Of a stretch of 64,000 bases of DNA, positions 2,221-60,835 are shown piece by piece. Below the pieces are notes generated by a model. It was given only the letters and a program-made list of their open reading frames with translations. It did not search any database and was not told where the DNA came from. The position numbers and the translations under genes are program-made. Location: NCBI RefSeq assembly GCF_016903815.1, contig NZ_CP069973.1, one strand, 5' to 3'. This stretch comes from Escherichia coli (GTDB lineage Bacteria; Pseudomonadota; Gammaproteobacteria; Enterobacterales; Enterobacteriaceae). How positions within the stretch are numbered: the first letter of the stretch is position 1; each line of letters begins with the position of its first letter.

Positions 2221-2792
2221 CGTAACTTACTCATTATTCTTACATTGACGACTAAGCTGCGGGCAAAGTAACGCCTTTCCGGGTGTGAACCGATGGCCTC
2301 GTGTCTAGTCGCGTCGCCAACCTCACGGTTATCGTCAGCTCAAAGAGGCGCAGAGTGTCGGTTGCCCGTTTTTCATGCGGAAAAACAGCGCAATTATCAA
2401 AGAAACAGACTGGGTATTACTCTCCAGAAATATTTCCATCTACCGGTAAGGACTGCAACCCGCAGCCCGCTAACTGCCTGAAAGATCAATACGTCTTACG
2501 CCATTGCTGCGTGGATGATCGGTCGGGCAAAATGGGTTATTCCGTAAAATTTCTTGTTTTAACAAGGATGGACACGGAAACGGCCTCATTATTCCACTGC
2601 AAGCCTTGTTATAGCAAGATGACTTTTACCATTTATCACCCGCTTACTCACAGTTTTTTCACTTCTTGCTGGTGATTGGTTTAATAACCATCAATAAAGT
2701 GATCACGTAGTGAAGTAATAAGGTGCAAAACTAAATATAAGCATAGAAAAATGAGTGGCGCGAATCCTGTTGACTAATTAGAATCGCCCACC
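2221..2792. promoter_or_regulatory. rne 5' leader and divergent rne/rluC promoter region
   Basis: 570-bp ORF-poor gap between divergent rne and rluC starts; a long structured autoregulatory rne leader is established for this locus. Confidence 0.5.
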
Positions 2793-3863: not shown

Positions 3864-4448
3864 CTATCCCATCAGCGGGTTTTTCCCTTCCCGACGTAAC
3901 ATCTGACACAGCGCGATTAGCGGTAAACCAACCAGCGTGTTAGGATCACGCCCCTCTAAACGCTCAAACAGCGTAATGCCAAATCCTTCACTCTTAAAGC
4001 TACCCGCGCAGTGCAGGGGATGCTCTTTACGCACGTAATTATCAATCTCCGCCTCGCTCAGGTGACGGAAATGGACGTCAAAAGGCTCCACTTCTGTTTG
4101 TAGATGCCCATTCGCCGAATTAAACAACGCCAGTCCAGTATAGAAGGTGACGATATTGCCGCTGGCTTTGCGTAATTGCAGACGGGCATTTTCTTCCGTT
4201 AACGGTTTACCGGTGATTTCGCCATCAAGAACACATACCTGGTCTGAACCAATAATTAAATGATCCGGATAACGTGACGCCAGAGATTGCGCTTTTTCTT
4301 GTGCCAGTCGAAGCACCAACTGTCGCGGTGATTCGTCGCTGCGTGGGGTTTCGTCGACCTCTGGTGCTGCACATTCAAAAGAGATTTGCAGTTTTTCCAG
4401 AAGAGCGCGACGCCAGGGCGAGGTGGAGGCTAAAATAAGTTTAGGCAT
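3864..4448 (-). CDS. yceF: Maf-like nucleotide pyrophosphatase YceF
   Basis: ORF 3864-4487; start placed at internal Met ([14 protein letters not shown]) giving 194 aa. Confidence 0.88.
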
Positions 4449-4634
4449 ATTTTTTTCCATCAGATATAGCGTATTGATGATAGCCATTTTAAACTATGCG
4501 CTTCGTTTTGCAGGTTGATGTTCGTTATCAGCACTGAACGAAAATAAAGCAGTAACCCGCAATGTGTGCGAATTATTGGCAAAAGGCAACCACAGGCTGC
4601 CTTTTTCTTTGACTCTATGACGTTACAAAGTTAA

Positions 4635-11081: not shown

Positions 11082-11794
11082 TTGTGCACAGAAAACCCCC
11101 AGCTAGGCTGGGGGTTCCGGAAAGCTTTCAGCTTTAAGCCAGTTATTAAAACCCCTTTTGATTTGTTAAAACACCTTGCGGTCTGGCAACTGCAAGTGTC
11201 AAACAAGAAATCAAAAGGGGGTCCCAATGGGGAACGAAAAGAGCTTAGCGCACACCCGATGGAACTGTAAATATCACATAGTTTTTGCGCCAAAATACCG
11301 AAGACAGGTGTTCTACAGAGAGAAGCGTAGAGCAATAGGCAGTATTTTGAGAAAGCTGTGTGAGTGGAAAAGTGTACGGATTCTGGAAGCTGAATGCTGT
11401 GCAGATCATATCCATATGCTTGTGGAGATCCCGCCCAAAATGAGCGTATCCGGCTTTATGGGATATCTGAAAGGGAAAAGCAGTCTGATGCTTTACGAGC
11501 AGTTTGGTGATTTGAAATTCAAATACAGGAACAGGGAGTTCTGGTGCAGAGGGTACTACGTCGATACGGTGGGTAAGAACACGGCGAAGATACAGGATTA
11601 CATAAAGCACCAGCTTGAAGAGGATAAAATGGGAGAGCAGTTATCGATTCCCTATCCGGGCAGCCCGTTTACGGGCCGTAAGTAACGAAGTTGGATGCAA
11701 ATGTCAGATCGTGTGCGCCTGTTAGGGCGCGGCTGGTAAGAGAGCCTTATAGGCGCATTTGAAAAACCTCCGGCTATGCCGGAGGATATTTATT
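11082..11794 (+). mobile_element. IS200-type insertion sequence, copy 1
   Basis: 713-bp block identical to 27980-28692; left-end hairpin cccccagctaggctggggg; single Y1 transposase gene; absent from this intergenic site in E. coli K-12 as I recall it. Confidence 0.9.
11227..11685 (+). CDS. tnpA: IS200/IS605-family Y1 (HUH) transposase TnpA
   Basis: 152 aa from internal Met with RBS aaaggggg; HUH motif HIHMLVEIPP; ORF-track 5' extension judged non-coding. Confidence 0.9.
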   Translation: MGNEKSLAHTRWNCKYHIVFAPKYRRQVFYREKRRAIGSILRKLCEWKSVRILEAECCADHIHMLVEIPPKMSVSGFMGYLKGKSSLMLYEQFGDLKFKYRNREFWCRGYYVDTVGKNTAKIQDYIKHQLEEDKMGEQLSIPYPGSPFTGRK

Positions 11795-27981: not shown

Positions 27982-28692
27982 GTGCACAGAAAACCCCCAG
28001 CTAGGCTGGGGGTTCCGGAAAGCTTTCAGCTTTAAGCCAGTTATTAAAACCCCTTTTGATTTGTTAAAACACCTTGCGGTCTGGCAACTGCAAGTGTCAA
28101 ACAAGAAATCAAAAGGGGGTCCCAATGGGGAACGAAAAGAGCTTAGCGCACACCCGATGGAACTGTAAATATCACATAGTTTTTGCGCCAAAATACCGAA
28201 GACAGGTGTTCTACAGAGAGAAGCGTAGAGCAATAGGCAGTATTTTGAGAAAGCTGTGTGAGTGGAAAAGTGTACGGATTCTGGAAGCTGAATGCTGTGC
28301 AGATCATATCCATATGCTTGTGGAGATCCCGCCCAAAATGAGCGTATCCGGCTTTATGGGATATCTGAAAGGGAAAAGCAGTCTGATGCTTTACGAGCAG
28401 TTTGGTGATTTGAAATTCAAATACAGGAACAGGGAGTTCTGGTGCAGAGGGTACTACGTCGATACGGTGGGTAAGAACACGGCGAAGATACAGGATTACA
28501 TAAAGCACCAGCTTGAAGAGGATAAAATGGGAGAGCAGTTATCGATTCCCTATCCGGGCAGCCCGTTTACGGGCCGTAAGTAACGAAGTTGGATGCAAAT
28601 GTCAGATCGTGTGCGCCTGTTAGGGCGCGGCTGGTAAGAGAGCCTTATAGGCGCATTTGAAAAACCTCCGGCTATGCCGGAGGATATTTATT
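27980..28692 (+). mobile_element. IS200-type insertion sequence, copy 2
   Basis: Identical to 11082-11794 by eye, same orientation. Confidence 0.9.
28125..28583 (+). CDS. tnpA: IS200/IS605-family Y1 transposase TnpA
   Basis: Same 152-aa protein as copy 1. Confidence 0.9.
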   Translation: MGNEKSLAHTRWNCKYHIVFAPKYRRQVFYREKRRAIGSILRKLCEWKSVRILEAECCADHIHMLVEIPPKMSVSGFMGYLKGKSSLMLYEQFGDLKFKYRNREFWCRGYYVDTVGKNTAKIQDYIKHQLEEDKMGEQLSIPYPGSPFTGRK

Positions 28693-47026: not shown

Positions 47027-47236
47027 TTACGGTGCTGTTTTAAGCCCCGCCGGGATTTCGTTATTGTCCATGTGAATAACTTTATCGACCGGATAACAGT
47101 TGCCGGGAATTTTCTGTTCCGCTGCGGCAGCCATGCATTCTTTCATTGAGTTGTACATGCCGGTGATTGCATCAAGCGACTCACCAGTATTGAGATGTAC
47201 AGTCAGAATGAGTACGAATAATGTGTTCATCGCCAC
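47027..47236 (-). CDS. Small membrane protein, YdfD-like by position (putative host-killing/lysis protein)
   Basis: 69-aa ORF with N-terminal hydrophobic segment, immediately downstream of the DicB-like gene as ydfD is in Qin; identity not verified. Confidence 0.45.
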   Translation of the reverse strand: MAMNTLFVLILTVHLNTGESLDAITGMYNSMKECMAAAAEQKIPGNCYPVDKVIHMDNNEIPAGLKTAP

Positions 47237-47415
47237 TCTCCGAAAATACCGAGTTTAAGAAGGGCAATTCTGGAGAGTATGGAATTGTCATTCAGCAGGT
47301 AGGGTTCATATTTTCTCATATTGATTGCATCCTCGGTGAAATCCCTGTTACTGAGCAGAACACCAATATTAAAGCACCCGTCAGACGTATTAACGTTTGG
47401 TAGTGACGTTTCCAT
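47227..47415 (-). CDS. dicB: DicB-like cell-division inhibitor
   Basis: 62 aa; LPNVNTSDGCFNIGVLLSN..FTEDAIN.RK closely matches recalled E. coli DicB. Confidence 0.75.
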   Translation of the reverse strand: METSLPNVNTSDGCFNIGVLLSNRDFTEDAINMRKYEPYLLNDNSILSRIALLKLGIFGEWR

Positions 47416-47425
47416 TATCGCGTCC

Positions 47426-47983
47426 TCAACAATGAATTTTTAGCAATTGCTCCACAGTCATATTTTTAATTGCGCTCCGGTTTACAAGAGTCCATCCTTG
47501 TTTCTCCAGATAAAACCGGAAGGTATCCAGGGTGCAGACCATTGCGCCGTCAGGAACGGTTTCAGTGAATTTGATATTGCCGTGTTCGTCGAGACGGATA
47601 ACCAGGGTGCGTCCGTCCCCGTGAATCATTTTGTCGGGAGACGGGGCGTTATTCTGGCGCAGTTCTTCCTCCATGCGATCGAACTCAGCGATGTAGGCTT
47701 CTTTGAAAGTTGCGGCTTTTTTACCTGTGAACCCCATCACCAGGAAAACGAAGCCGTTTTTGGTGATTTGGTACATGGGGCGTTTTTCGCCTTTGGCGTC
47801 GGTGTAGGTAACGGGCGTAAAATTGCGCTCGTTAAAATCTTCAGAGCATTCTAGCGTTTCAATTTTGCGCAGAACGTCCTTGTGCATTTTGCGGAAGAAC
47901 TCTGCAACCGCAACAGACGTAGTGACAGCGCGACCATTTTCGATGGTTACGTCAGGGTGAGAAAGGGTAGGGATAGTAGCCAT
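47426..47983 (-). CDS. rha: Rha-family phage regulatory protein
   Basis: Start at internal ATG with RBS gagg (MATIPTLSHPDVTIENGRAVTTSVAVAEFFRKMHKDVLRKIE); the ORF-track 5' extension crosses a terminator-like hairpin. Confidence 0.7.
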   Translation of the reverse strand: MATIPTLSHPDVTIENGRAVTTSVAVAEFFRKMHKDVLRKIETLECSEDFNERNFTPVTYTDAKGEKRPMYQITKNGFVFLVMGFTGKKAATFKEAYIAEFDRMEEELRQNNAPSPDKMIHGDGRTLVIRLDEHGNIKFTETVPDGAMVCTLDTFRFYLEKQGWTLVNRSAIKNMTVEQLLKIHC

Positions 47984-48463
47984 AATGGCAGCCTCTTGGT
48001 TGAGTATTAATAACTCACCACCAAGGTTTTCCACGACCATAAGGGTGGTGAGGCGTACAGGGGTGGAAATACCGGTCAACCAAGAATCCGGCCAGCCTTG
48101 CAGCTGCCCTGCACGCCCCACCATAATCTGAATGTGGCTGTGCTTGACGCATAAAAAAACCGCCTGAGCGCGGTTATGCGCTTGATTGAATTCCGGGTTT
48201 CCACGCCCGGCACCCGTTTTATGAGGTGCAGGTGCACTATAATTCCACCCGTTCTGGTTTTCAATAGCTACATTCAACATTTTCTCTTACCTTTCATCAC
48301 CGAAGTGAACTTTGTTGATGCGGTGCCTGGTGCCTCCAGGTGACGTTAACCAGTTAACAATTAACGCCGGATACAGAGAATCCACCCATAACACTGTTTT
48401 TGGTTTTAACTGTTCCGCGTGCGCTTAGCCGCATTCACCGCATCACAAAATTCACTTTAAAAA

Positions 48464-48515
48464 GGGTGGCAGAGCAGTCACGGAGTAGAACTGATGCCAC
48501 CAAAGACTACACATG
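48464..48515 (-). ncRNA. dicF: DicF-like small RNA
   Basis: Minus-strand ggtggcatcagttctactccgtgactgctctgccaccc plus U-tail matches recalled DicF 3' two-thirds at about 34 of 38 nt; 5' end approximate. Confidence 0.6.
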
Positions 48516-48810
48516 GGTATTGTGGCGGGGCTGTCACTTAAGCGTATGGTCAACCTGACAACCCGGTGCATTTTCTGGAGCAATGGAGGAAACCCCAGCC
48601 ATACTTACCGCCGCGCCATTTCGCGGATTGCCACAACCGGAAGCGCACGATCGAATTAAATTTAACGACGACCTATACAGAGAGACTAACTTCGCCGGGC
48701 GCTTTCGTGTTATGCCCTGACTTTTCAGGGATATATCCTTTTTAGTAAACTGTCAGTGCCGGATTCTTATCCGTGTCCGGCGCACGCACTCTACCTCACC
48801 TGTGAATAAA

Positions 48811-49197
48811 TTAATGATTAATTGATATTTTGTTGTTTGATTCAACTTTCCCATCGGATGTGTGATGCTTTAAATCACAGGAATTAATACTGCTCGCTGT
48901 AAAATGATTTTCAAGGGGAGCTATTCGAATCCCTTTCTTTTTCATTAACAAGCCAAATCCTTTATTAATGATGTCCATTAATTCCAGGAAGTATTTTTCA
49001 TGTAAATCCTGGTTATCAGAGAGCTGCTTCTCTTCGTACAGACCGATAAAGGCACGACGCACGTTACCGGATATAGTATCGATGGTTTCTTTTTCTACGG
49101 TACTCAGGTCAAGAGTCGCCAGTTGAGAGCGAACCACATTCGATGCCATTTCCTGGAATGGTACTGGTAAATCTTTAAATTCCATCGTCAACCTCAT
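48811..49197 (-). CDS. Hypothetical protein, early-left operon
   Basis: 128-aa ORF whose start overlaps the stop of the upstream small gene; 3' half markedly AT-rich; no recognised motif. Confidence 0.55.
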   Translation of the reverse strand: MRLTMEFKDLPVPFQEMASNVVRSQLATLDLSTVEKETIDTISGNVRRAFIGLYEEKQLSDNQDLHEKYFLELMDIINKGFGLLMKKKGIRIAPLENHFTASSINSCDLKHHTSDGKVESNNKISINH

Positions 49198-56799: not shown

Positions 56800-56976
56800 A
56801 TAACTGCGGGTGCTTGAGGCTATCTGTCTCAGGCATGAACACCAAAAGGCAGATAGAGAAAAGCCCCAGTTAACATTACGCGTCCTGCAAGACGCTTAAC
56901 ATTAATCTGAGGCCATATCTATGCGACACATAGAGATTAGCCTCTTACGGACCGAAAGGTCAAGGAGAAGCAGGCT
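56800..56976. promoter_or_regulatory. hok mRNA leader with mok-like upstream ORF and expected antisense Sok region
   Basis: 19-codon upstream ORF (ATG 56921) whose TGA overlaps the hok ATG; hairpin gcgtcctgcaagacgc; Sok position inferred, not observed. Confidence 0.35.
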
Positions 56977-57132
56977 ATGAAGCAGCAAAAGGCGATGTTA
57001 ATCGCCCTGATCGTCATCTGTTTAACCGTCATAGTGACGGCACTGGTAACGAGGAAAGACCTCTGCGAGGTACGAATCCGAACCGGCCAGACGGAGGTCG
57101 CTGTCTTCACAGCTTACGAACCTGAGGAGTAA
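56977..57132 (+). CDS. hok: Hok/Gef-family type I toxin
   Basis: Hand translation MKQQKAMLIALIVICLTVIVTALVTRKDLCEVRIRTGQTEVAVFTAYEPEE (51 aa), essentially the HokD/RelF sequence as recalled. Confidence 0.85.
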   Translation: MKQQKAMLIALIVICLTVIVTALVTRKDLCEVRIRTGQTEVAVFTAYEPEE

Positions 57133-59005: not shown

Positions 59006-59374
59006 ATGACCGAACGCATAGAATTTGTTTTGCCTTACTCGCCGACGGTGAACACTTACTGGCGACGCCGTGGCAGCACATATTTTGTATCAAAAGCCGG
59101 GGAGCGTTATCGCCGGGCAGTGGCGCTTATTGTTCGCCAGCAGCGACTGAAATTAAGCCTGTCCGGACGGCTGGCAATAAAAATTATTGCAGAGCCACCG
59201 GATAAGCGTCGTCGTGACCTGGACAATATTCTGAAAGCACCACTGGATGCGCTGACGCACGCGGGGTTGTTAATGGACGATGAGCAGTTTGATGAAATCA
59301 ATATTGTACGTGGCCAGCCAGTATCTGGTGGACGGCTGGAGATAAGAATTACAGAGGTGGGTGTGCATGAATAA
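59006..59374 (+). CDS. rusA: Holliday-junction resolvase RusA
   Basis: 122 aa; PDKRRRDLDNILKAPLDALTHAG and GGRLEIRITEVG match RusA. Confidence 0.88.
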   Translation: MTERIEFVLPYSPTVNTYWRRRGSTYFVSKAGERYRRAVALIVRQQRLKLSLSGRLAIKIIAEPPDKRRRDLDNILKAPLDALTHAGLLMDDEQFDEINIVRGQPVSGGRLEIRITEVGVHE

Positions 59375-60056
59375 CCAGTATTTACAGTTTGTTCGTGAGC
59401 AACTCATGATTGCCACTGCAGATCTCAGTGGGTCGACAAAATGCCAGCTGGAAGCCTGGCAGGAAAATGCCCTGTTCGATACAGGGCGTTACAGACGCAA
59501 AAAAATTCGTTACCGCGATGAGGTAACCGGAAAAATGATCACGCGGGATAATCCCCCGATCCAGGGTAAACAATCACTGGCGAAAGGCTCATCAATTGCG
59601 CTGGTCAGTCCTGTTGAGTTTGCAACATCATCGTGGCGGCGTGCTGTTCTGGAACTGGAAGAACATCAGAAGGCGTGGTTGTTGTGGTGTTATGGCGGAA
59701 ACATTTGCTGGGAGCATCAGATCGCGATAACGCAGTGGGGGTGGAGTGAATTTAAAACTCAGTCCGGCTCCAGAAAAATTGCAGTGAAAACGCTGGAGCG
59801 TGTGAAGAAGTTGATCTGGCTGGCGGCACAGGATGTCAGAGGATGGGTTACCGGGTGTGAGGTCTACCAGAGACAGGAGCTTGCCAGACTGTGTGGAGTT
59901 AAGCCTGATAACTGGAGCCATAATTATGCGAACTACTGGCGTGAGATGTGCGATATTTTTAAGCGCCTCGATAGAGAATCCTTGATTTGCTCCGTGAAAA
60001 TAAGAGCGCAACAAAAAGCGACCTTTTCACGACGAGATATTGCAAAAGTCAATTAA
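59367..60056 (+). CDS. Putative late-gene antiterminator (Q-like)
   Basis: 229 aa, overlapping rusA stop, directly upstream of a tR'-like terminator and the lysis genes; assigned by position. Confidence 0.5.
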   Translation: MNNQYLQFVREQLMIATADLSGSTKCQLEAWQENALFDTGRYRRKKIRYRDEVTGKMITRDNPPIQGKQSLAKGSSIALVSPVEFATSSWRRAVLELEEHQKAWLLWCYGGNICWEHQIAITQWGWSEFKTQSGSRKIAVKTLERVKKLIWLAAQDVRGWVTGCEVYQRQELARLCGVKPDNWSHNYANYWREMCDIFKRLDRESLICSVKIRAQQKATFSRRDIAKVN

Positions 60057-60478: not shown

Positions 60479-60835
60479 TTGTGGTAAATGGGCGGCTGGT
60501 GGGTGTGGTGGTTGTTGCTTTCCCGTTGCTGAAAAAGAAAACGCCAGACTGTTAGCCGGGTATCAGTTAGCGGGAGAAATTTTTAAATACTTCACAATTC
60601 AGGCGGTTGACTGTTGTCTGGTTTGCGGGGAGTTTGTTAAAAGAAACTGGCATGGTGAATCCCCCTGTGCGGAGGGGCAATCAGCGAGTAGGTATATGGG
60701 ATAATCGCGGATTCAGGTGCTGGTACTGAATTCACCGGGAGGCACCCGGCACCATGCAATGGCACATAGCGCCACTCTCCAGCCCCTCTCCGGAGGGGCT
60801 GTTTATATTGATTTTGTCAGATGTGAGTAAACTCC

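Follow-up and report, generated by a model that had tools for sequence, protein, structure and literature searches.

A probable P1 immI-type antisense RNA cassette within a dicBF-type operon of an Escherichia coli prophage that carries a variant DicF

In phage P1, c4 is a processed, trans-acting antisense repressor that is cut from its precursor by RNase P and represses icd-ant through translation-dependent (Rho-dependent) polarity, and the heteroimmunity of P1 and P7 reflects differing C4 specificity loops. In Gifsy-1, the small RNA (sRNA) IsrK has its own promoter, shown experimentally, and some transcripts pass its terminator; the resulting long RNA is translationally silent and is activated by IsrK in trans via an upstream open reading frame (ORF), orf45, on which the translation of anrP depends, whereas STnc1160 is a processed RNA downstream of IsrK that is complementary to it (PMC4825925). 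The sRNA DicF of the Qin prophage of Escherichia coli K-12 is encoded in a "long untranslated region" (PMC5069750), binds Hfq, and is released by RNase E and RNase III, the latter generating a species of 72 nucleotides (nt) (PMC5069750, PMC9438474); genetic work identified xylR as the target of its 5' end and ftsZ as the target of its 3' region (PMC5069750). Here we describe an interval, positions 47984-48810 of a 64,000-nt stretch of E. coli DNA (contig NZ_CP069973.1; the whole stretch is referred to as the window), that is a mosaic of familiar parts, all belonging to described families, and not a new kind of element. The interval is likely the untranslated middle of a lambdoid prophage dicBF-type early operon that has received a P1 immI-type cassette just upstream of the dicB start, and all of its relevant features lie on the minus strand (Table 1).

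Rfam was scanned at gathering thresholds (GA) across the whole window, for which E values were computed, and the region 47800..49000 was rescanned at higher sensitivity with sub-threshold matches included. Three RNA genes inside the interval score above GA, namely, DicF (61.1 bits, GA of 48, E value of 6e-11, covering model positions 1 to 52 of 52), isrK (69.2 bits, GA of 50, E value of 1e-12), and a C4 antisense RNA (78 bits, GA of 45, E value of 1.4e-13). An earlier note, made from the sequence alone, had placed a DicF-like sRNA at precisely the coordinates of the Rfam match and had noticed further hairpins, which are now accounted for by IsrK and C4. Its suggestion that the flanks of DicF hold additional processed RNAs was borne out, although the note had not named them: IsrK and the C4-type RNA are found downstream. 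The upstream sequence is the known long dicF leader and gave no Rfam match over 48810..48516, even in the sensitive rescan. The lower edge of the interval, as drawn in that note, is off by one base, the rha ATG occupying positions 47983..47981.

The insertion is apparent from comparison with the K-12 Qin prophage, in which ydfC is followed by 340 untranslated nt, dicF, 174 nt, and dicB. Positions 48785..48300 of the window align along the whole of this noncoding stretch, and also to phage Tritos, with identity to K-12 of ~85 to 90% upstream of DicF and nearly complete identity in the spacer between DicF and dicB. The homology ends near the old dicB start and resumes just before an intact dicB at 47415; the right junction keeps the dicB leader AAAATTCATTGTTGAGGACGCGATAATG, which supplies the last codons of Rha, and dicB leader sequence is found at both junctions. 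This break in homology, together with the leader remnants, identifies ~860 bp (roughly 48300..47440) as an insertion, the contents of which are a promoter, IsrK, C4, and rha. The dicB gene begins 11 nt past the rha stop codon with its native leader and Shine-Dalgarno (SD) sequence kept.

Within this cassette, the predicted isrK promoter is the best site of the region in a promoter scan, and the Rfam isrK match begins 7 nt past the -10 hexamer; promoter-like hexamers stand at the same position in mEp460, locus L107, and Gifsy-1 despite unrelated upstream sequence. The IsrK terminator, found by a terminator scan, has its stem at 48175..48158 and, after it, a run of T residues that reaches 48153, and is the hairpin cataaccgcgctcaggcggttttttt that the earlier note had correctly seen to be crossed by the upstream extension of the rha ORF. 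IsrK is thus recognized by its covariance model, its own predicted promoter, and its intrinsic terminator, with a C4-type RNA, a leader ORF, and a regulator gene following downstream. A match to the c4-a1b1 model (RF03163) overlaps isrK at a sub-threshold 25.5 bits, and C4 begins 24 nt downstream of IsrK.

The two RNAs are linked to each other and to rha by complementary segments that vary in concert. The C4 and IsrK folds themselves are well supported over 17 distinct sequences, with 97.9% of cells paired and 11 pairs changed on both sides, a result reached by none of 500 shuffles. When 19 module sequences are aligned (a first MAFFT pass had 20 unique modules), the segments b1, b', and b2 change together, as do a1, a', and a2, and b2 overlaps the SD sequence of rha (AAGAGG, 47997..47992). 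Since indels shift the register in column-wise counting of pairs, intermolecular pairing through the a and b elements was scored instead by comparing cognate with noncognate duplex energies among 16 specificity types. The mean energy of C4 with its own leader was -31.4 kcal/mol versus -20.9 kcal/mol (standard deviation, 4.0) with foreign leaders, the cognate partner being the best in 13 of the 16 types, and that of C4 with its own IsrK was -33.6 kcal/mol versus -21.4 kcal/mol for noncognate pairs, with the cognate partner best in all 16. Among closely related cassettes, the b elements are enriched in variable columns (21 of 30, versus 62 of 195 elsewhere; Fisher P = 1.5e-4). The C4 of the window therefore has what characterizes the P1 immI type, that is, complementarity to a1 and b1 upstream and to a2 and b2 downstream, with the ribosome-binding site overlapped. 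Pairing between the 5' strand of C4 hairpin 1 (GGCAGC) and GGCUGCC between the SD sequence and the AUG was also considered and was rejected, since it is not kept in homologs with a different hairpin 1; the real "a" recognition element is UUUCCAC/GUGGAAA.

These pairings suggest how the cassette could operate. Transcription from the isrK promoter would produce IsrK, and read-through of its terminator would produce a longer transcript that includes C4 and rha. C4 would use its single-stranded a' and b' segments to bind a2 and b2 of the rha leader and, because b2 overlaps the SD sequence, would block translation of rha. Since IsrK carries copies of the C4 target sites, it would serve as a decoy whose a1 and b1 segments, free or in cis, compete for C4 and open the lock. 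The pairing scheme is evident from the covariation, and we infer its regulatory outcome from P1 c4/icd/ant and Gifsy-1 isrK-orf45-anrP. With dicB directly behind rha, read-through from the isrK promoter could also coexpress dicB.

The published first AUG of Gifsy-1 orf45 (+107) maps to an invariant AUG at the 5' end of C4, and in Gifsy-1 orf45 ends in an AUGA overlap with anrP. By homology, the leader ORF that starts at this AUG in the window is probably translated and would probably couple ribosomes into rha, to which it is fused in frame. A 45-amino-acid (aa) ORF at 48152..48015 was considered as the orf45 homolog and rejected, as the mapping of the +107 AUG puts the orf45 start at the C4 AUG, in another frame, and the equal length is coincidental.

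IsrK might act otherwise than mainly as a decoy for free C4. In the model published for Gifsy-1, applied to the window, short IsrK would instead act in trans by base pairing to the orf45/C4 part of the long read-through mRNA, converting an inactive fold of that mRNA into an active one and so turning on translation of the leader ORF and rha. This model has genetic and structural data behind it in Gifsy-1 (PMC4825925), the window has the same elements and the same AUG, and the complementarity between IsrK and C4 is conserved and covaries. It leaves unexplained the covariation of b' with b2 at the rha SD sequence and the P1 immI layout, in which C4 is a processed, trans-acting repressor. We regard this model, taken in place of the decoy mechanism, as possible but on balance doubtful. 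The two models draw on a single set of pairings, and one does not preclude the other.

Table 1. Positions of the RNA genes, pairing segments, and protein-coding features in and around the interval
Feature	Coordinates	Strand	Remarks
Untranslated leader, homolog of the K-12 ydfC-dicF region	48516..48810	-	~85-90% identity to K-12 Qin
DicF sRNA, variant allele	48459..48515	-	Rfam RF00039 match 48515..48464
Structured DicF-dicB spacer	48303..48458	-	~22-bp closing helix around four hairpins
Predicted sigma-70-type promoter of isrK (TTGAAA, 17 nt, TATAGT)	48236..48264	-	10/12 matches; start predicted at ~48229
IsrK sRNA	48153..48229	-	Rfam RF01394; two hairpins plus intrinsic terminator
a1, GUGGAAA	48204..48198	-	IsrK hairpin 2
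b1, UCAAUCAAG	48189..48181	-	IsrK linker
C4-type antisense RNA	48041..48128	-	Rfam RF01695; equivalent of Salmonella STnc1160
Leader ORF start, invariant AUG	48124..48122	-	Equivalent to Gifsy-1 orf45; in frame with rha, no stop between
b', UUCUUGGUUGA	48086..48076	-	C4 hairpin-2 loop
a', UUUCCAC	48069..48063	-	C4
rha leader with C4 targets a2 and b2	47981..48040	-	Read from sequence
a2, GUGGAAA	48034..48028	-	rha leader
b2, UCAACCAAGA	48003..47994	-	rha leader
rha, Rha-family regulator, 185 aa	47426..47983	-	Cassette cargo gene; stop in old dicB leader
dicB, intact	47415..47227	-	ORF and RefSeq

Upstream of the cassette, the operon carries a DicF allele with a replaced 5' end. The 3' 46 nt of the window DicF differ from K-12 dicF at 4 positions, consistent with the earlier estimate of about 34 of 38 nt identical in the 3' part, and alignment and folding confirm that the terminator hairpin and U-tail are kept. 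Two of the four differences compensate for each other in the terminator stem, where a C-G pair has become U-A, and the fold energies of the two alleles are similar (-15.8 kcal/mol in the window and -15.9 kcal/mol in K-12); the fold and the compensatory change both support a working terminator. The first 12 nt, in contrast, are unrelated to those of K-12 (CAUGUGUAGUC in the window and UUUCUGGUGACG in K-12), and a 14-nt stretch just upstream is deleted. The divergence of the 5' part had led the earlier note to propose that target specificity may differ, and the computed duplexes agree. The 5' end of K-12 DicF (nt 1 to 16) pairs with xylR at -16.7 kcal/mol through 12 consecutive pairs (nt 4 to 16), whereas the window allele fails to form this seed pairing and reaches -7.3 kcal/mol at an unrelated site. 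The core at nt 17 to 48 that pairs with ftsZ, pykA, and manX is retained, with calculated energies for the window and K-12 alleles, respectively, of -23.4 and -20.7 kcal/mol for ftsZ (a computation against K-12 ftsZ -80..+40, in which both alleles pair at the same site), -27.3 and -24.8 kcal/mol for pykA, and -23.5 and -24.4 kcal/mol for manX. Since this core is kept, the variant should still block division, and since the 5' seed is replaced, repression of xylR is predicted to be lost; this division of targets agrees with the published genetics (PMC5069750). By homology with K-12, the 5' end would be made by RNase E cleavage of the precursor, and the 3' side of the sRNA would be set free either when transcription terminates at the DicF hairpin or when RNase III cuts the long helix of the spacer.

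The variant allele recurs. The 124 DicF loci compared comprise 120 viral contigs gathered in a single pattern scan and a set of reference loci; ~105 of them have the canonical 5' end UUUCUGGUGAC(G/A/U)UUUGGCGG, and ~13 have the window-type 5' end CAUGUGUAGUCUUUGGUGG, invariably with the 14-nt deletion just upstream. Among 5,426 complete E. coli genomes, 207 carry the window-type allele and 3,970 carry the canonical allele. The DicF family is accordingly not uniform, ~4% of complete E. coli genomes having an allele that is predicted to hit ftsZ with its xylR seed lost, so that DicF phenotypes inferred from K-12 or from enterohemorrhagic E. coli need not transfer to strains with the window allele. 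The rarity of the allele, the absence of the canonical AU-rich 5' processing context AUCAAUUUUCUGG, and the frequent occurrence of dicBF loci in defective prophages (PMC5069750) could also be taken to mean that this DicF is a decaying relic, its processing site destroyed and its operon broken by the cassette, with nothing functional left. We consider this improbable, as the allele varies little among its 207 genomes and ~13 viral contigs and is found both with and without the cassette, the full ftsZ-pairing core is kept along with a terminator bearing a compensatory base-pair change, the adjoining genes (dicA-like, rha, dicB, ydfD, exonuclease, and replication genes) are intact, and dicB has retained its native leader and SD sequence at the right junction.

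The spacer that follows DicF is highly structured, with a minimum free energy of -64.6 kcal/mol (z = -5.16; 0 of 200 shuffles were equally stable), and is nearly identical to that of K-12 over ~150 nt. The 72-nt size of the RNase III-dependent DicF species fits a cut in the spacer helix, and the spacer is on this ground a probable RNase III substrate. It matches STnc100 (Rfam RF02076) in part (48452..48311, model positions 22 to 154 of 206) at 38 bits against a GA of 47 and, being below the threshold, is not filed as STnc100 but only as a structural relative. The collected copies are nearly identical in sequence. A frame of closing helix, GGUGAAU hairpin, and two 3' hairpins is fixed in loci L005, L008, L018, L029, L089, L104, and others, and the central hairpin has at least five alternative forms, a pattern suggestive of exchange as a module. 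An antiterminator RNA like HK022 put was also considered for the spacer and was dropped as unsupported, not as disproved, no link having been found in the literature and no sequence comparison having been run. A full-length STnc100 copy (132.4 bits) that ends in a terminator lies elsewhere in the window, at 60621..60810 on the plus strand, upstream of lysis genes and just downstream of a Q-like ORF (59361..60056), a position consistent with a short RNA made from the late promoter.

The Prokaryotic Genome Annotation Pipeline (PGAP) places a "DicB pseudogene, missing C-terminus" at 48394..48311, inside this spacer. The annotated segment shows no homology to the 62-aa DicB coding region and aligns instead to the untranslated spacer 5' of the K-12 dicB ATG. 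In K-12, the frame extends without a stop for 35 codons on the 5' side of that ATG, back to a GTG, so the match is to over-extended DicB models, from which the pseudogene call probably stems, and not to DicB coding sequence.

On the other side of DicF, the alignment of the leader to K-12 Qin begins ~25 nt past the ydfC stop codon, and the proximal ~185 nt (48700..48516) are conserved among DicF loci that have different upstream genes. The leader presumably belongs to the dicBF-operon precursor, in which RNase E cleavage would create the 5' end of DicF. Folding of the flanks, which the earlier note had advised, gave a marked result for the spacer and an unremarkable one for the leader (z = -1.8). 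Stems were predicted in a consensus structure for the 295-nt leader, with no compensatory changes, and conserved structure in the leader is not supported, as the sole pair changed on both sides sits in the DicF terminator. A plus-strand ORF of 45 aa (48583..48720) with GGAG before its ATG was rejected as a conserved gene, since the ATG occurs only in the window-type leader allele.

The cargo gene rha encodes a member of the Rha family. In the longer, 284-aa coding sequence (CDS) that PGAP annotates from 48280, a position from which the frame is open, Pfam Phage_pRha (PF09669) matches residues 120 to 205 with an E value of 8.8e-31, equivalent to residues 21 to 106 of the 185-aa protein, and the best-matching PHROG families of Rha proteins and antirepressors start at residue ~111. 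Met100 of the long ORF corresponds to the rha ATG and is preceded by a strong SD sequence. Proteins of the Rha family are commonly annotated as antirepressors; a sequence search of the PDB with Rha returned no match.

Several points weigh against parts of the interpretation given here. The isrK promoter is predicted from its consensus match and positional conservation, and it is conservation, not structure or function, that speaks for the leader upstream of DicF. Loss of the AU-rich RNase E processing sequence makes the mature 5' end, and hence the seed, of the variant DicF uncertain. An antirepressor role for the Rha-family protein is presumed, homology to Gifsy-1 AnrP does not extend beyond a weak C-terminal match (23% over 75 aa), and IsrK may, as discussed above, act by remodeling the long transcript rather than mainly as a C4 decoy. 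Finally, a longer ORF across isrK and C4 may be translated: stop codons in the module alignment are depleted in the rha frame across this region (9, versus 74 and 70 in the other frames), and Pfam Phage_ASH (PF10554) matches residues 14 to 109 of the long ORF with an E value of 1.1e-13.

The last of these points bears on whether the region codes for protein, the earlier note having called the interval ORF-free. Over 48229..47984 that description holds in the sense that substitution density is flat by codon position (0.286/0.294/0.290), with no codon periodicity in any frame; it does not hold for the annotation, which includes a CDS and a pseudogene, or for the leader ORF. All 9 stop occurrences in the rha frame come from three sequences, and variable stop sites number 2 in this frame versus about 11 and about 20 in the others (binomial P of about 2e-4). 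The leader ORF accounts for the depletion downstream of 48124, and b1, which is 186 nt from b2 and in the same phase, inherits the stop avoidance of b2. Upstream of 48124, depletion remains beyond what the leader ORF explains. PHROGs 6928, 3960, 29966, and 4908 match the conceptual translation of isrK plus C4 (48241..47954 in the window, as well as loci L124, L125, and L128), and phage records contain CDSs of ~380 aa, annotated as "antirepressor," "peptidase," or "transcriptional regulator," that run through isrK-C4. Phage_ASH and these PHROGs look like protein families built on RNA genes, and the long Rha frame in RefSeq, like the "DicB pseudogene," looks like an annotation artifact. Treating these RNA genes as coding sequence is routine among gene callers and in libraries of protein families, and it misleads the annotation of prophages.

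The residual depletion upstream of 48124 is the basis for a more speculative idea, in which the rha frame is deliberately kept open through isrK-C4, with an SD sequence and an ATG at 48280 placed at the old dicB start. Upon derepression of dicBF, ribosomes from upstream would translate through the IsrK terminator and C4, melting both, so that the antisense lock would be bypassed and an N-terminally extended Rha made together with DicB. The element would then be both RNA and "spacer ORF," with Phage_ASH as its protein shadow. Combined with the proposal that the seed-swapped DicF may have gained a different host regulon, this idea is unlikely, the two being judged jointly. The databases' own reading, that a 284-aa Rha with an "Ash"-family domain has its first ~100 aa encoded at 48280..47984, the RNA matches being secondary, and that 48394..48311 is a decayed fragment of a dicB gene, is very improbable, since, for all that PGAP annotates both features, that the long Rha frame is open, that the Phage_ASH and PHROG matches cover the same part, that stops are scarce, and that long CDSs are annotated through the region in mEp460, cdtI, and Lys8385Vzw, the substitution density is equal across codon positions, the region is fully covered by a promoter, two above-GA RNA genes with strong pair covariation, and an intrinsic terminator, its variation is concentrated where segments covary as RNA duplexes, the frame is broken in L107, in Kp4865, and in Gifsy-1 (the prophage in which experiments established the RNA functions; PMC4825925), the Rha domain begins only past Met100 with its strong SD sequence, and the supposed DicB fragment aligns to the 5' untranslated region of K-12 dicB, where the frame happens to be open for 35 codons.

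The 827-bp segment occurs identically in many E. coli chromosomes, with 129 records at least 99% identical to it and 314 genomes covering at least 80% of its length. In one carrier, the RefSeq gene order on the minus strand is a divergent Cro/CI-like gene, a DicA-like helix-turn-helix repressor, DUF1391 (YdfA-like), a 128-aa hypothetical protein, the interval, the Rha family protein, DicB, DUF1482 (YdfD-like), and an exonuclease; RefSeq annotation and the ORFs show the neighboring genes, including the replication genes, to be intact. DicF thus has a dicBF-type operon setting, with ydfA-type genes before it, dicB after it, and a DicA-like repressor over the operon, and the 128-aa protein (PHROG 6937) stands where K-12 has ydfB and ydfC. 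The cassette is present in 18 of the 124 DicF loci, with either DicF allele, whereas in ~90 loci dicF is followed directly by dicB. The isrK-C4-regulator module is also found in Stx phages, mEp460, cdtI, phiP27, ST64B-like Salmonella phages, a P2-like phage, a Klebsiella phage, and Gifsy-1. The P1-type C4 lock, known in Salmonella from work on IsrK, behaves as a portable cassette with many coevolving specificities that guards different regulator genes, and its insertion here into an operon for inhibition of cell division may tie DicB expression to the lock. In the searchable literature, no description was found of a cassette insertion into a dicBF operon, an in-frame fusion of leader ORF and rha, or a seed-swapped DicF allele.

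Other RNA elements were recorded in the window outside the interval. A sok antitoxin RNA lies at 56808..56979 (plus strand) in the nin-like region of the prophage, as identified by Rfam. An rne 5' untranslated region element (2245..2581, minus strand) and SraB (4442..4610, plus strand) at the left end indicate that the window adjoins the rne region of an E. coli chromosome. Two STnc490 matches on the plus strand (11094..11217 and 27992..28115), ~16.9 kb apart, have the same score (146.1 bits each) and the same alignment, which suggests a repeated mobile element or a duplication.

Compared with the described systems, the locus departs from each of them in a few respects. The structured spacer shares with the prophage sRNAs STnc100/PasD (RF02076; bioRxiv 10.64898/2026.05.13.724894) its closing helix, a GGUGAAU motif, and a pair of 3' hairpins that carry the UCACCNGGAGGCACCNGGCACC motif, and relative to the STnc100 copy at 60621..60810 it has the same helix layout, with base changes that preserve pairs; it differs in lacking the STnc100 5' part and terminator and in lying inside an operon behind DicF, whereas STnc100 lies downstream of a Q antiterminator gene. 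DicF resembles that of K-12 Qin (RF00039) in its place after a long untranslated leader and before a spacer of ~175 nt and dicB, in its hairpin terminator and its ftsZ/pykA/manX pairing core, and in its full-length Rfam match, but it lacks the xylR seed (nt 4 to 16), has a changed RNase E context and 14 fewer nt upstream, follows the gene for the 128-aa PHROG 6937 protein, and is separated from dicB by the cassette.

The cassette shares with isrK-orf45-anrP of Gifsy-1 (Hershko-Shalev et al. 2016, PMC4825925) the promoter, an IsrK with a leaky terminator, the C4-like RNA, the leader ORF, and the regulator gene, as well as the complementarity of IsrK to the C4/orf45 segment. The cargo proteins have unrelated N-terminal domains (Rha in the window and AnrP in Gifsy-1), the a and b specificity sequences differ, and the window leader ORF is fused in frame to rha without an AUGA overlap; the module of the window stands inside a dicBF operon without isrJ, whereas that of Gifsy-1 is downstream of Q/antQ. 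The likeness to immI of P1 and P7 (RF01695, RF03163) lies in the order of an a1b1 RNA with terminator, C4, and then a2 and b2, with b2 placed at the ribosome-binding site of the gene that follows, and in specificity loops that vary between phages. A P1-like Punavirus has an a1b1 RNA with terminator, C4, and a2 and b2 with an SD sequence in front of icd, and even the first codons are homologous, P1-like icd beginning MATIPTP and the window Rha beginning MATIPTL. In the P1-like phage vB_EcoM-673R5 (L137, 775..915), the AUG at the C4 5' end is in frame with the icd start with no stop between; to our knowledge, a leader ORF over c4 has not been described for P1. The C4 of the window differs from that of P1 in that the gene predicted to be directly under its control encodes a Rha-domain protein and not the 73-aa Icd followed by ant, neither icd nor ant being present at the locus.

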